Of a stretch of DNA of 11,235 nucleotides, positions 2,278 to 6,189 are shown piece by piece. Both the position numbers and the translations under genes were made by a program. Source of the DNA: Promethearchaeota archaeon (lineage in GTDB: Archaea; Asgardarchaeota; Thorarchaeia; Thorarchaeales; Thorarchaeaceae); contig JALVPN010000157.1 in the NCBI GenBank assembly GCA_027031765.1, positions 1 through 11,235 on the forward strand. The letters are read 5' to 3'. The notes under the pieces were generated by a model. The model worked only from the letters and a program-made list of their open reading frames with translations. It did no database searches and had not been told where the DNA came from. The stretch's first letter is position 1; each line of letters begins with the position of its first letter.

Positions 2278-3717
2278 CTAGCGCGCAATCTTCCACGTTG
2301 GGCCGTCCTTTGTGTCAGCGACGACCACGCCCAGCTCACCGAGGCGCGCCCGGATCCTGTCGGCGGTGGCGTAGTCCTTTGCAGCACGGGCCTCCTCCCG
2401 TATTTCGAGGAGCAGTCCTATCAGGCCCTCGACCAGTGCTGCCGCTCCCGCACCCACTGTCTGGGCCCCGCCTGACAGGTCGATACCGAGTACACCCACG
2501 ACCTCAGTAAGTGCAGCGAGGGCCTCTCTGAGGGTACCGGCACTGCCCACCTCCGGGGCGAGGGTGTTGACGTCCCGGACAAAGGTGAATATCTCCGCCA
2601 GCGCACTGGGCGTATTGAAGTCGTCGTCCATGGCGCGTTCAAAGCCCTCCCGCAGCCTGGCAACGGACTCCTTGAGCTCCCTGTCAGACCCCTTGGCCCT
2701 GTCACCGGCCTTCTCGAGGACGCGGATCCGGCCCCGCAACAGTTCCGCCGCGTTCCGGAGCCTGTCGAGGGAGTGCTGTGCCTGTTCCAGGGCCGCCTCG
2801 TTGAAGTCGAGTGGCTGACGGTAGTGTGCTGAGACCAGGTACAGGCGCACGGCCTGGTGGTCGTGTCTGTCGAGCACCTCGCGTGCGGTGTAGAAGTTGC
2901 CCTCCGACTTCGACATCTTCTCCTTGTCAATGGTCAGGAACCCGTTGTGCAGCCAGTACTTGACCGGTGTGTCGATGTTGTACGCCGCCGATGACTGCGC
3001 GATCTCGTTCTCGTGGTGTGGGAATATCAGGTCCTGTCCACCACCATGGATGTCGAAGGGCAGGCCGAGGAACCGCGCACCCATTGCCGAACACTCGATG
3101 TGCCATCCCGGACGGCCGCGCCCCCACGGGCTCTCCCACGACGGCTCCCCCGGCTTCTCAGCCTTCCACAGTGCAAAGTCACGGGGGTCGCGCTTCTTCT
3201 CGTCCACCTCAACCCTCGCCCCGGCGGCCAGCTCGTCCTTGGATATCCTGGACAGGACACCGTACTGCTCGTGTCCGGCCACATCAAAGTAGACGTCTCC
3301 GTCCACCACGTACGCTTTCCCGTTGTCCACAATGTGCTGGATCATGTCAATCATATCGTCTATGTGTTCCGTGGCCCGCGGGTTGACGGTGGCGGGCTTG
3401 AGGTTCAGCTCCCGGGCTATCCGCAGGTACTCCTCGGTGAACCGGGCGGCCAGCTCCCGCACGGTCGTCCCCTCCTCCCTCGCACGGGCTATCATCTTGT
3501 CGTCTATGTCCGTGATGTTCGTCACAAAGGTGACCCGGTAGCCCTTGTACTCAAGGTACCGCCGTATCGTATCGAAGACCGCAAATGAGCGTGCGTTCCC
3601 TATGTGCGGGTAGTCGTACACCGTAGGGCCACACACGTACATCCGTACAGTGTTCCCTTGGAGCGGTACGAACTCCTCCTTGCTGCGGGACAGCGTGTTG
3701 TACACATACAGTGTCAT
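2278..3717 (-). CDS. cysS: Cysteinyl-tRNA synthetase (class I), 479 aa
   Basis: MTLYVYNTLSRSKEEF start; CGPTVY, HIGN (HIGH variant), GRPGWHIECS, HGGGQDLIFPHHENE, KMSKS, AMDDDFNT (DALR region) and C-terminal ADRIRARL. Start placed at 3717 rather than 3816 because the CysRS homology begins there and a TATA-like box lies ~24 nt upstream. Confidence 0.98.
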   Translation of the reverse strand: MTLYVYNTLSRSKEEFVPLQGNTVRMYVCGPTVYDYPHIGNARSFAVFDTIRRYLEYKGYRVTFVTNITDIDDKMIARAREEGTTVRELAARFTEEYLRIARELNLKPATVNPRATEHIDDMIDMIQHIVDNGKAYVVDGDVYFDVAGHEQYGVLSRISKDELAAGARVEVDEKKRDPRDFALWKAEKPGEPSWESPWGRGRPGWHIECSAMGARFLGLPFDIHGGGQDLIFPHHENEIAQSSAAYNIDTPVKYWLHNGFLTIDKEKMSKSEGNFYTAREVLDRHDHQAVRLYLVSAHYRQPLDFNEAALEQAQHSLDRLRNAAELLRGRIRVLEKAGDRAKGSDRELKESVARLREGFERAMDDDFNTPSALAEIFTFVRDVNTLAPEVGSAGTLREALAALTEVVGVLGIDLSGGAQTVGAGAAALVEGLIGLLLEIREEARAAKDYATADRIRARLGELGVVVADTKDGPTWKIAR

Positions 3718-3740: not shown

Positions 3741-3767
3741 CATAAAAAGGCGTCTGCAATAGTTGCC
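3741..3767 (-). promoter_or_regulatory. cysS promoter: TATA-like TTTTTATG (3748-3741) plus upstream palindrome GGCAACTATTGC (3767-3756)
   Basis: - strand reads GGCAACTATTGCAGACGCCTTTTTATG. TATA spacing puts the start site at about the ATG (leaderless-type). The same architecture occurs at the tRNA-Cys promoter. Confidence 0.65.
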
Positions 3768-3881
3768 CACTCTTCCGACCTGTACGACGACACACCCTTC
3801 CCCAGACAGGCCGCACACCTCCCGCACAGGCCAGCCCACTCAGTGCATGTGCCGGTGCTGCCGGATGTGTGGTGTGTGTGA

Positions 3882-3987
3882 CATGTACCTATGCACGACG
3901 GGCCCTACAGCCGTCGATGAGCCGGAGTGGGACTTGCCGGACTTGAAGGGGGCATGCGCCTCTGCACCACGGGCCCAACAGCAGTGG
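3882..3987. repeat. Imperfect 33-bp direct repeat (3882-3914 and 3953-3985, 71-nt period), each copy carrying a stem-loop
   Basis: CATGTACCTATGCACGACGGGCCCTACAGCCGT vs CATGCGCCTCTGCACCACGGGCCCAACAGCAGT, 27/33 identical. Stems CGACGG/CCGTCG and CCACGG/CAGTGG enclose the loop GCCC(T/A)ACAG. Confidence 0.7.
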
Positions 3988-4090
3988 GCAGGGCCTACAG
4001 GTCAGGTATCATGCAGAGGCAAGTGTGGGAGTCCAATGATACGTGGTCGGTCGAGTCAGGACGTGGACCACAGCACAGAGATAGTAGGTG

Positions 4091-4101
4091 GGAAAAGGAG
4101 G
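4091..4101 (-). terminator. Possible pyrimidine/oligo-U terminator after tRNA-Cys
   Basis: CCTCCTTTTCC directly follows the CCA end on the - strand; archaeal terminators are often short U-rich tracts. Confidence 0.35.
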
Positions 4102-4176
4102 TGGAGCCGGCCAGGGGATTTGCACCCCTGTATAACGGATCTGCAGTCCGTCGCGTAGCTACTCCGCCAGACCGGC
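4102..4176 (-). tRNA. tRNA-Cys (anticodon GCA), intronless, CCA genomically encoded (mature body 4105-4176)
   Basis: GCCGGTC TG GCGG AGTAGCT ACGC G ACGGA CTGCAGA TCCGT TATAC AGGGG TGCAAAT CCCCT GGCCGGC T CCA. 7-bp acceptor stem (one G-U), 5-bp anticodon and T stems, GCA at 4144-4142, G37 and discriminator U73 typical of archaeal tRNA-Cys. Confidence 0.96.
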
Positions 4177-4202
4177 TTGCACCCCCTGCTCCGCTTGCAG
4201 GG

Positions 4203-4229
4203 CTTAAAATCATATCGGCAATTGTTGCC
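4203..4229 (-). promoter_or_regulatory. tRNA-Cys promoter: TATA TTTTAAG (4209-4203) plus upstream palindrome GGCAACAATTGCC (4229-4217)
   Basis: - strand reads GGCAACAATTGCCGATATGATTTTAAG; the TATA box ends 27 nt before the mature tRNA 5' end. Confidence 0.72.
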
Positions 4230-4308
4230 TGTTTGTGTGGTGTCCTGCCCGCGCCACTCAGCTGCACCGCCGTCGTACACTGGCTGATAGCCGTAGCAGG
4301 CGCGTCCA

Positions 4309-4347
4309 GGGAGAAATAGGTGTGTGGTGGGGCCATGGCGGCCCCAC
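4309..4347 (-). terminator. Putative terminator of the peroxiredoxin gene
   Basis: Perfect 8-bp stem GTGGGGCC/GGCCCCAC (4327-4334/4340-4347, 5-nt loop) starts 17 nt after the stop and is followed by TATTTCTCCC on the - strand. Confidence 0.5.
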
Positions 4348-4364
4348 TTGTTGGCTGTCGGTGC

Positions 4365-5021
4365 CTACAGTCTCTTCTTGCAGAAGAACCAGTCAGCGCA
4401 GTCGTAGCCTTCCTGCAGGCGCTTGTCCGCCTCCTCCTTCGTGGTCGGTGGCGGCACTATCACCTCGTCGCCGGGCTTCCAGTTGGCCGGTGTTGCAACC
4501 CCGTGCTTGTCGGATGTCTGGAACGCGTCAATGATGCGCAGTATCTCCTCCATGTTGCGGCCGTTGCTCAGTGGGTAGTATATCAGTGCCCGTAGCTTGA
4601 ACTCAGGGTCGATGAAGAACACCGCACGCACGGCAGCGGTGCTGCTCTGTGCCGGGTGGATCATGCCGTACTTCTTGGCCACGTCCATGGACAGGTCGGC
4701 GATTATTGGGAATGGTATCTCCTTGCCGAGCTTCTCCTTGATGGTCTTGAGCCATGCGATGTGGGAGAACACGCTGTCAATGCTGAGGCCCAGCAGCTTC
4801 ACGTTCCGCTTCTTCAGCTCAGGGTAGATGTCCGCGAACGCCATGAACTCCGTGGTGCACACTGGCGTGAAGTCTGCGGGGTGGCTGAACAGTATCACCC
4901 AGCTCCCCTTGGCCCACTGGCTGAACTTGATGACACCAGCCGTGGTCACCGCCTCAAAGTCAGGCACCTCCTCGCCTATCAGGAGCATCCGTTTCTCTTC
5001 CTGTGTTTCCATGTTTCTCAT
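4365..5021 (-). CDS. Peroxiredoxin, Prx6/archaeal type with C-terminal Cys pair (alternative starts at 5012 or 4988)
   Basis: [16 protein letters not shown] peroxidatic motif (PVCTTE is the Prx6 signature), [27 protein letters not shown], and C-terminal CADWFFC as in archaeal thioredoxin peroxidases. Confidence 0.96.
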
Positions 5022-5043
5022 CTCGTGGTATGTTTGCCCTTTC

Positions 5044-5058
5044 TTAGAACTATTCTTA
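5044..5058. promoter_or_regulatory. Per-box-like operator TTAGAACTATTCTTA
   Basis: 7-1-7 imperfect inverted repeat; 10/14 informative positions match the Bacillus Per box TTATAATNATTATAA. It overlaps the downstream edge of the prx TATA box. Confidence 0.55.
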
Positions 5059-5063
5059 TTTAA
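5057..5063 (-). promoter_or_regulatory. TATA box of the peroxiredoxin promoter
   Basis: TTAAATA on the - strand, about 36-42 nt upstream of ATG 5021, in the only strongly AT-rich stretch of the window. Confidence 0.6.
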
Positions 5064-5090
5064 GTCTTGTTACTAAGACATTGTGGTTCC

Positions 5091-5097
5091 TTTATAC
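5091..5097 (+). promoter_or_regulatory. TATA box of the Fur/PerR-family gene
   Basis: TTTATAC ends 23 nt before GTG 5120, consistent with a leaderless transcript. Confidence 0.55.
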
Positions 5098-5119
5098 GAA
5101 GTCTTATAACATCACGTAA

Positions 5120-5572
5120 GTGAGTAGGCATACCATGACCGGGCCCACGACGACGATTGCATCGGAACTACGACGGTACGGCTACCGTGCCACTCCTCAA
5201 CGCATTGCAATCTATGACGCGCTATGGAAGTCGGGTGACCACCCGACAGCCCTTGACATCCACAAGTACGTCGCCATGCGTGATCCCACCATAAGTCTGG
5301 GCACAGTATACAATACCCTCAGGCTGTTCGCTGACCTTGGGCTCGTCCGGGAAATGGGGCTGCGCGACGGCTCCACGAGGTACGACCCGAGAGTGGACGG
5401 CCACGTGAACCTGATCTGTACACGCTGTGGCTCGGTCGTGGACTTCCATTTTGATGGTGTCAGGGGTCTGAAGGAGGCCATCAGGTCAAAGACGGACTTC
5501 ACTGTACACTCGGACTCTGTCGAGGTGTATGGCCTGTGTGCCAGCTGCAGCAGGTCGGTGCGCGGTGAGTGA
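5120..5572 (+). CDS. Fur-family transcriptional regulator, PerR-like (GTG 5120 or ATG 5135 start)
   Basis: RATPQRIAI, DHPTALDI, ISLGTVYNTL (HTH), RYD...HVNLICTRCGSVVDF and VYGLCASC (two CxxC Zn-site motifs). The D in VVDF matches PerR D104. Divergent from the peroxiredoxin gene. Confidence 0.93.
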   Translation: MSRHTMTGPTTTIASELRRYGYRATPQRIAIYDALWKSGDHPTALDIHKYVAMRDPTISLGTVYNTLRLFADLGLVREMGLRDGSTRYDPRVDGHVNLICTRCGSVVDFHFDGVRGLKEAIRSKTDFTVHSDSVEVYGLCASCSRSVRGE

Positions 5573-5706
5573 CGGCCCGGACACGGGGCCTGTGGCAGAT
5601 GGACAGGGCGTGCCACGAGTGGCGTTTCCAGTGTCAGTGATGCAGGACTGCTGGCATAGAGTTATCCTTATCACTGCTCCCGTAACTCAGGGTGGCGTGG
5701 TGTGCA

Positions 5707-5994
5707 ATGAGAGTCAGGGCAGTGCTCCGTGACATCAACATCCTTGAGATGAAGCCGGGGTCGCGCGAGCGGATCATGGCCACGGTAGAGAAGAACCTCG
5801 ACCGGACTGTGAACCTGTCCTCTCTGCTCAGAGTGATGGGCCTCAAGCCAGAGGAGCGGCTGAGGCTCTTCGAGTTACTGGAGGGCAGCGACATCCATGT
5901 GTGGCTGACACGCATGGGCGAACAGCACATCATCTACATGTCACGCAACGCAATTGCCCCCGAGTTCGACCTGCCCGGGTACCAGTGGCAGTAG
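5707..5994 (+). CDS. Hypothetical protein, 95 aa, possible winged-helix fold
   Basis: MRVRAVLRDINILEMKPGSRERIM...PGYQWQ. Natural globular composition and G/C-rich third positions like the neighbouring genes; GGTG-type RBS upstream of ATG 5707. No family motif recognised with certainty. Confidence 0.72.
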   Translation: MRVRAVLRDINILEMKPGSRERIMATVEKNLDRTVNLSSLLRVMGLKPEERLRLFELLEGSDIHVWLTRMGEQHIIYMSRNAIAPEFDLPGYQWQ

Positions 5995-6189
5995 GGATGT
6001 GGCTGGCATGACAGTGCTCCACGGCCACAGCACCACGCCGCCATAGACTGCTGTCCTGGGCCCACCGGCCACACCGCAGCGGCCCCGGGAGGAGGGACTC
6101 CAGCTCTTCTCCGTGTTGGCCACGGAGCCCGCCGGCCACACCACAACGACTCGGTGCAGGGCGCTATCTGTCCGCCGGCGCCTCCATAA

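Follow-up and report, generated by a model that had tools for sequence, protein, structure and literature searches.

A short palindrome, GCAA-N3-TTGC, stands at the same place before two genes on contig JALVPN010000157.1 of a Thorarchaeaceae genome (assembly GCA_027031765.1): cysS, which encodes cysteinyl-tRNA synthetase (CysRS), and the gene for the cognate tRNA-Cys. Comparison across the family shows that this box is a conserved, gene-specific cis element located immediately upstream of the B recognition element (BRE) and TATA box of both genes, and the same palindrome is conserved at a third locus, between nadA and a gene for an NAD kinase fused to a winged helix-turn-helix (wHTH) domain. 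We put at about 70% the probability that a sequence-specific wHTH factor, probably a dimer, uses the dyad (full form G-GCAA-N3-TTGC-C) as its operator and has a regulon comprising cysS, tRNA-Cys, and nadK/nadA. The contig, analyzed at its complete length of 11,235 nt, is called the window below, and its genome (G000) is a 95% complete assembly of 2.95 Mb in 229 contigs with 59% G+C. A search of sequencing runs found the sequence in one DNA run, a hydrothermal-vent metagenome, and in no RNA run. Relatives were drawn from the 24 other genomes of the family, the set spanning 16 genera, along with a sister-family genome (G025), genomes of other families (G026 and G029), and two from further families of the phylum (G028 and G031). 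The elements on which the argument depends are as follows.

2278..3717, - strand: cysS, from its translation a class I cysteinyl-tRNA synthetase of 479 aa, with orthologues of 63 to 74% identity in all family genomes.
3756..3766, - strand: cysS box GCAACTATTGC, dyad GCAA-N3-TTGC; with the 5' G, 3767-3756 reads GGCAACTATTGC.
3741..3755, - strand: predicted cysS core promoter, with a BRE-like AGACGCC (3755-3749) and the TATA box TTTTTATG (3748-3741).
4102..4176, - strand: tRNA-Cys (GCA), found by ARAGORN and by Rfam (RF00005, 53.9 bits).
4217..4229, - strand: tRNA-Cys box, a perfect 13-bp palindrome, GGCAACAATTGCC, with the core GCAA-N3-TTGC at 4218-4228.
4203..4216, - strand: predicted tRNA-Cys core promoter, with a BRE-like CGATAT(G) and the TATA box ATTTTAAG (4210-4203).

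Read on the - strand, the two promoters, GGCAACTATTGCAGACGCCTTTTTATG (3767-3741) and GGCAACAATTGCCGATATGATTTTAAG (4229-4203), align without gaps and are identical at 19 of 27 positions, with the end of each box lying 15 nt away from the final base of its TATA octamer. The promoter sequences, their identity, the dyad positions, and this exact spacing had all been given in a preliminary description of the window, and all are correct. The center of the TATA box precedes the ATG by about 27 nt at cysS and the mature 5' end of the tRNA by about 30 nt at tRNA-Cys, which would be the usual archaeal geometry. As the cysS TATA box ends 24 nt before the ATG at 3717, the cysS mRNA is probably leaderless or nearly so.

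Two copies of GCAA-N3-TTGC occur in the 11.2-kb window, compared to 0.06 expected, and none of 200 shuffled windows contained two; these are the only copies there. The more specific pattern GGCAACWATTGC (GGCAAC-W-ATTGC) has three copies in the 2.95-Mb genome, the third within coding sequence. A genome-wide search for the box followed at an offset of 5 to 10 nt by a TATA-like run returned cysS, tRNA-Cys, and two matches in coding sequence without a real TATA box. By crude gene calls (2,622 genes, 84% coding), 7 of the 67 exact 11-mers in G000 are intergenic, which is no enrichment, and four of those seven are the cysS, tRNA-Cys, nadK/nadA, and phosphoribosyltransferase (PRTase) sites. Only two of eleven GGCAA-N3-TTGCC 13-mers are intergenic, and they are the tRNA-Cys and nadK-wHTH/nadA copies. 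As expected of a gene-specific operator, the GCAA-N3-TTGC box is a short dyad that is found less often than chance would permit and at only a handful of promoters.

The same counts bear on whether the box could be a promoter element of general use, for instance one found upstream of stable-RNA or highly expressed genes, or a recognition element for an alternative TFB. Such an element might well have a right half-site abutting the BRE, as is seen here, and part of the conserved block (CGAYAT at tRNA-Cys, AGACGCC at cysS) is indeed BRE-like. However, the promoters of the 23 other tRNAs that ARAGORN finds in G000 have no box; all they have in common is a BRE-like CGAAAG or CGATAC followed by TTTWAA. 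The similar CGATAC-TTTTAA of tRNA-Gly(CCC) implies that the CGATAT/TATA portion of the tRNA-Cys promoter is general BRE/TATA sequence and not part of the box. Together with the absence of intergenic enrichment and with a box at the nad locus that lies 33 to 42 nt from TATA, too far for an extension of the BRE, this makes a general element, one of the outcomes that the preliminary description had named as refuting its reading, very unlikely.

Each of the 24 other family genomes yielded a CysRS orthologue, and among the 22 genomes of the family (G000 counted) in which the cysS 5' end lies on the contig, every promoter has the box at the same offset, 20 of them exactly (all eight dyad bases) and two with seven of eight bases. 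The upstream DNA of these 22 genomes cannot be aligned outside a single block, gGCAA-N3-TTGC-AGAcGyC-TTTTTATg, which precedes the ATG by about 55 nt. The footprint begins sharply at the G that precedes the box and ends after TATA, with zero information in the flanks. Outside the family, G025 carries GCAATAATTGC 7 nt before the cysS TATA box, and G029 has a near box, GGCAATATTTTCC, at the corresponding position. A CysRS similarity search of genome contigs contributed nothing to the footprint, as the loci it brought up were all distant, most of them bacterial, with none from the family.

At tRNA-Cys the element is conserved in a looser form. Across the 21 family genomes in which tRNA-Cys was located, the promoters follow the form (G/T)GC(A/C)A-N3-TTGC-CGAYATCC-TTAAAA, and a box with at least seven of eight bases lies within 160 nt upstream in 19, being exact in 12; one further genome keeps six of eight bases. 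Counting the proximal position alone, the box is exact in six genomes and has seven of eight bases (GCCA or TGGC) in seven. An exact distal box, about 100 to 160 nt upstream, is present in G003, G009, G011, G016, G021, and G023, as well as in G042 and G045; distal boxes stand in a cysS-like context, TTGCAGAtTTC-TTTAA, and some genomes retain a half-site at the proximal position. The earlier expectation that the box would be conserved at orthologous cysS and tRNA-Cys genes is thus borne out: about 20 genomes, representing 16 genera, have it.

In at least seven genera, the exact box about 100 to 160 nt upstream of tRNA-Cys is a second one, with a TTTAA box of its own (L040, L042, L043, L046, L049, L035, L195, and L196), and the DNA between it and the tRNA contains conserved patches, such as TATAGAATTTCTGCAGTA. 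Possible readings of this region are an extended leader of the pre-tRNA, a second promoter in tandem, or a small RNA.

Gene order provides a separate view of where the shared box came from. In G000, cysS and tRNA-Cys lie on the same strand, 385 bp apart, and BRE/TATA composition is common to promoters anyway, so that one might suspect chance or an old local duplication of a promoter, leaving a dyad without function of its own. Adjacency on one strand is, however, found only in G000. In relatives the two genes are divergent, 1.5 to 36 kb apart, or on separate contigs, which means that a recent local duplication cannot explain the common box; most of these genomes nevertheless keep both boxes, amid flanks that have been randomized. 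A third, unrelated locus also conserves the same palindrome. With the shuffling result, these observations leave chance or duplication with next to no probability.

A degenerate version of the pattern was also scanned across 31 family genomes with the reversed pattern as a control, yielding 156 matches compared to 48, and the cysS and tRNA-Cys classes appeared in nearly every genome. Most single matches fell inside open reading frames (ORFs) and were rejected, as was the only other recurrent class, GCAAyWGTTGCrGAACTCrTTAT, which was seen in three genomes and lies within conserved coding sequence. In the AT-rich G025, an excess of 21 matches to 1 cannot be relied on, since there are CG dinucleotides in the reversed control; the intergenic matches of G025 had no coherent gene set.

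Two further intergenic copies in G000 both read GGCAAGAATTGC. One lies 80 nt before a quinolinate phosphoribosyltransferase (QPRTase)-family gene, and the other lies in the spacer between nadA and the NAD kinase gene, a locus placed as follows.

3815-6066 of G000 contig C207 (L243; relatives L246-L263), divergent: NadK-wHTH / nadA locus, with the palindrome in the spacer.

Here nadA (quinolinate synthase; PF02445, 2e-104) is divergent from the gene (C207:3815-4897) for a 360-aa NAD kinase with a C-terminal MarR-like winged helix. In Pfam searches this protein matches NAD_kinase_C at 9e-22, and residues 279-338 match MarR_2 at 26.9 to 30.4 bits, compared to a cutoff of 27 bits. It combines a pathway enzyme domain with a DNA-binding wHTH, as enzyme-fused wHTH regulators do. 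Of the 24 other family genomes, 16 have the fusion, and so do G025, G031, and G028, where the copy adjoins nadA. All 17 family genomes with the fusion (G000 counted) carry gGCAA-N3-TTGCC in the nadA/fusion spacer, 14 exactly and three with one mismatch. This box stands 33 to 42 nt upstream of the TTTAAGAG box of the fusion gene, and G025 has GGCAATTTTTACC at the same place. Also in keeping with an enzyme-fused regulator, the palindrome is conserved at its own and the divergent promoter and reaches another pathway gene, the PRTase of the QPRTase family, albeit in only 2 of 11 genomes (G000 and G009). Phylogenetic footprints of the kind expected for an operator are therefore found at cysS, at tRNA-Cys, and at nadK-wHTH/nadA.

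All nadA promoters of the family have a second conserved element, TTGCC-G-nTTGAGATT, that ends about 3 to 5 nt before TATA (L286-L302; about 5040-5075 of C207 in G000). It contains one half-site of the box and is kept even in genomes without the NadK-wHTH fusion. In G003, G005, and G011, where no fusion was found, nadA has no full box and retains only this proximal TTGCC-GnTTGAGATT.

The nad and cys boxes are identical in type, G-GCAA-N3-TTGC-C with an unconstrained center, and since the two cannot be told apart, a factor that binds one class should bind the other. The preliminary description had proposed a regulator specific to cysteine and dedicated to one tRNA and its synthetase. That part of the proposal fails: with an identical palindrome at the NAD locus, and sometimes at the PRTase gene, the regulon or the specificity class of the regulator must be wider than cysteine. 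Among cysteine genes, cysS, tRNA-Cys, and one cysE-cysK operon do carry the box, but the nadA/NAD kinase-wHTH and QPRTase-family copies fall outside that set. The cysE-cysK case is that of G011, whose operon has an exact box 8 nt ahead of TATA. Among the family genomes searched, cysE was found only in G011 and G012. Above curated cutoffs, G000 has no CysE, CysK/M, SepRS, or SepCysS, and CysRS is the only route to Cys-tRNA found in it, so CysRS and tRNA-Cys are the whole of its remaining cysteine module. The organism may depend on external cysteine.

Several features of cysE loci were noted in passing. In G011 (L203:1501-2319), G026, and G032, the serine acetyltransferase encoded by cysE is extended at its N terminus by about 30 aa carrying a zinc-ribbon-like CxxC...CxxC motif, and cysE and cysK of G011 overlap by 29 nt. 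In G026 (L205; contig C1), where cysE adjoins cysS, a perfect ATAAC-AAT-GTTAT palindrome directly precedes cysE. The half-sites of ATAAC-N3-GTTAT, like those of TTAACAATTGTTAA from methanogens, differ from the arms of GCAA-N3-TTGC.

A regulator that serves only tRNA-Cys and cysS (and cysE-cysK where present), and that responds to cysteine or charged tRNA-Cys, could still be accommodated if a different, paralogous factor sharing its core specificity occupied the NAD palindrome. This alternative gains from the persistence of the cysS and tRNA-Cys boxes in eight family genomes where NadK-wHTH was not found, from the box before cysE-cysK in G011, and from the difference in spacing to TATA, which is 7 to 8 nt at cys promoters and 33 to 42 nt at the nad promoter. 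Each genome also encodes several small paralogous wHTH proteins with a P-x-RT-[VI] recognition-helix signature, one of which is encoded directly upstream of the cysS near box in G029. Against it, the two classes of box are indistinguishable, and no regulator gene specific to the cys boxes was identified. We regard a cysteine-dedicated factor as a tentative possibility.

Activating sites directly upstream of BRE/TATA are familiar from Ptr2 of Methanocaldococcus and TFB-RF1 of Pyrococcus. OxsR of Haloferax, a single-wHTH protein, activates when its motif lies upstream of BRE/TATA and represses when it lies downstream (PMC9426492), and EarA of Methanococcus likewise has an activator site upstream of BRE/TATA (PMC5512572). 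The box resembles all four in being a short palindrome or semipalindrome immediately upstream of BRE/TATA, where contact with TFB/TBP is possible. It differs in that its motif is unrelated and that its putative targets are a tRNA gene, the cognate aminoacyl-tRNA synthetase, and an NAD kinase locus.

If the dyad is an operator of this kind, its conserved regulon would consist of cysS, tRNA-Cys, and nadK-wHTH/nadA, with cysE-cysK and the phosphoribosyltransferase gene as occasional members, and its regulator would be a MarR-like winged-helix protein. From the pattern of conservation we infer that a regulator almost certainly binds at the box; the binder, the sign of regulation, and the effector considered below are proposals. 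At cysS and tRNA-Cys the operator would abut the BRE, with its 3' half-site ending 7 to 8 nt before TATA and its center about 43 to 44 nt before the predicted start. With the right half-site so close to the BRE, a dimer bound there would have either to contact TFB/TBP or to exclude TFB. We lean slightly toward a factor that recruits or stabilizes TFB/TBP as an activator over one that occludes the BRE as a repressor, because the documented sites upstream of BRE/TATA (OxsR, EarA, Ptr2, and TFB-RF1) activate. The nad-locus site, a turn or more further upstream, would also have the look of an upstream activating sequence. The NAD kinase domain suggests NAD(P) or ATP as an effector. That a single factor reads one palindrome at tRNA-Cys, its synthetase, and the NAD kinase/NAD synthesis locus, thereby coupling cysteine charging capacity to NAD(P) or thiol-redox status, and that this factor may be NadK-wHTH itself, seems to us possible yet distinctly short of probable. 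Any redox link through the neighboring peroxiredoxin and Fur-family genes and the thiol chemistry of cysteine is speculation.

Three groups of proteins are candidates for binding the box. The likeliest, though at well below even odds, is the MarR-like wHTH of the NadK fusion, which has a recognizable DNA-binding domain and a conserved box in its own control region. Its gene is 2 to 16 kb from cysS/tRNA-Cys in most family genomes, and only nadA and one ORF lie between it and cysS in G025.

A small standalone wHTH paralogue of the fusion is a weaker candidate. Such proteins, of 77 to 100 aa with the signature LP(P/R)SA...P-x-RT-[VI], are encoded in every genome, and it is an orthologue of the 77-aa group whose gene ends directly at the cysS near box in G029. 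The frame there (L026:1198-1431) has 78 codons and is MarR/TrmB-like; its stop abuts GGCAATATTTTCC, and no ATG, GTG, or TTG is present in frame before the helix-turn-helix. In G000, a palindrome, GTTGGCAAC, lies in the 5' region (C213:17417-17460) of the 77-aa MarR-like wHTH gene (C213:17184-17417), between a predicted TATA-like box and the ATG, and a RimK/ATP-grasp-like gene follows. There is no box near the standalone paralogue P0015 at C213, nor near the group of about 88 aa with the signature DLPRSA...LCRK.

The third candidate, which we consider unlikely, is an orphan encoded beside cysS and tRNA-Cys in the window:

5707..5994, + strand: 95-aa winged-helix orphan gene, candidate factor, linked to cysS/tRNA-Cys in the family.

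Homologues of this protein are found in 24 of 25 family genomes but in none of 16 outside the family, nearly always encoded 0.1 to 5 kb from cysS or tRNA-Cys, and its relatives make up only eight clusters among 1.8 billion representatives. A hidden Markov model search did not find it in G025, G029, G035, G028, or G024. In most family genomes cysS, tRNA-Cys, the 95-aa gene, and nadK-wHTH/nadA lie within 2 to 16 kb of one another, and the loci are adjacent in G025. In G006 and G010, the 95-aa gene is divergent from tRNA-Cys, with the box in the common spacer; apart from such divergent arrangements, its own promoter has no box. The protein has no match in Pfam. Its AlphaFold2 model (mean predicted local distance difference test score, 92.7) has winged-helix topology and weakly matches ArsR, PurR, CtsR, and PCI winged-helix structures in the PDB (Foldseek E ≥ 0.07, VIA Z ≤ 5.7). 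A conserved cysteine cluster is present in none of the three candidate groups.

A number of observations weigh against an operator read by one wHTH factor across this regulon. On the promoter side, many tRNA-Cys genes have a degenerate left half-site (GCCA), tRNA-Cys of G014 is not preceded by a box at all, and the cysE promoter of G012 has no box. The unequal distance from box to TATA at the cys and nad promoters means that a single mechanism may not fit both. On the protein side, searches for the NadK-wHTH fusion did not find it in G003, G005, G010, G011, G018, G019, G020, and G024 (8 of 25 genomes), where the cys boxes are perfect, and G019 is 98% complete; the fusion is therefore not present wherever the operator is conserved. 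No box was found at promoters of standalone wHTH paralogues in G000 and three relatives. G025 has the cysS box without a detectable 95-aa protein, and the third, putative recognition helix of that protein is acidic and variable in alignment, which is not what one would expect of a helix that reads an invariant site. No single candidate regulator has a distribution that matches that of the box.

The fusion has precedents. Enzyme-fused wHTH metabolic regulators include ThiR and NadR. Well-described examples are the archaeal RbkR, a riboflavin kinase with a wHTH domain (PMC5397151), and the bacterial NrtR, which joins a Nudix domain to a wHTH (PMC2330246). The NadK-wHTH gene and the pathway gene nadA are divergent and enclose a conserved palindrome, and this is the signature that was used to predict the RbkR, ThiR, and NrtR regulons. 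Unlike in RbkR, ThiR, NrtR, and NadR systems, the palindrome also stands at two genes outside NAD metabolism, cysS and tRNA-Cys, and a third of the family genomes with boxes at these two genes lack the fusion.

Control of synthetase genes in bacteria can instead operate on RNA, as in T-box riboswitches and in operons or attenuators that sense uncharged tRNA, which act on an RNA leader after initiation. The box shares with these the logic of coupling a synthetase gene to its own amino acid or tRNA, but differs in that the element is present at the tRNA gene itself as well. Lying upstream of TATA, it is not transcribed from the cysS and tRNA-Cys promoters, and the only Rfam match in the window is the tRNA; a T-box or attenuator was rejected on these grounds.

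The finding belongs to two kinds of system that are already known: operators that lie upstream of the core promoter in archaea, and enzyme-fused wHTH regulators. What appears to be new is a conserved, gene-specific operator common to a tRNA gene and its cognate synthetase in an Asgard-like lineage, with the same operator at an NAD kinase-wHTH/nadA locus. A literature search found neither a regulator of cysS and tRNA-Cys in archaea nor an NAD kinase-wHTH fusion regulator. To our knowledge, there is hardly any record of individual archaeal tRNA genes under gene-specific control, and we know of no work on transcription regulation in Asgard archaea and of no means as yet to manipulate them genetically.

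Three short, defined DNA sites (at cysS, tRNA-Cys, and nadK/nadA) and three small candidate proteins make the question directly testable. Should one factor serve all three sites, cysteine-tRNA charging would be linked to NAD(P) metabolism in an organism seemingly unable to make cysteine, and the NAD kinase fusion would join RbkR, ThiR, and NrtR among enzyme-regulator hybrids. If paralogous factors serve the boxes, the cysS/tRNA-Cys pair would represent a clean, minimal regulon of an amino acid charging pair.

Two neighboring genes of the window complete the features considered here.

4365-5021, - strand: 1-Cys peroxiredoxin gene, upstream of tRNA-Cys.
5120-5572, + strand: Fur-family gene.

In the 385-nt spacer that separates tRNA-Cys from cysS, the predicted RNA fold of 3870-4101 (- strand) is not better than that of shuffled sequences (z = -0.11). 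The spacer contains partly repeated GC-rich stretches (CTGTAGGCCC... and GCTGTAGGGCCC...).

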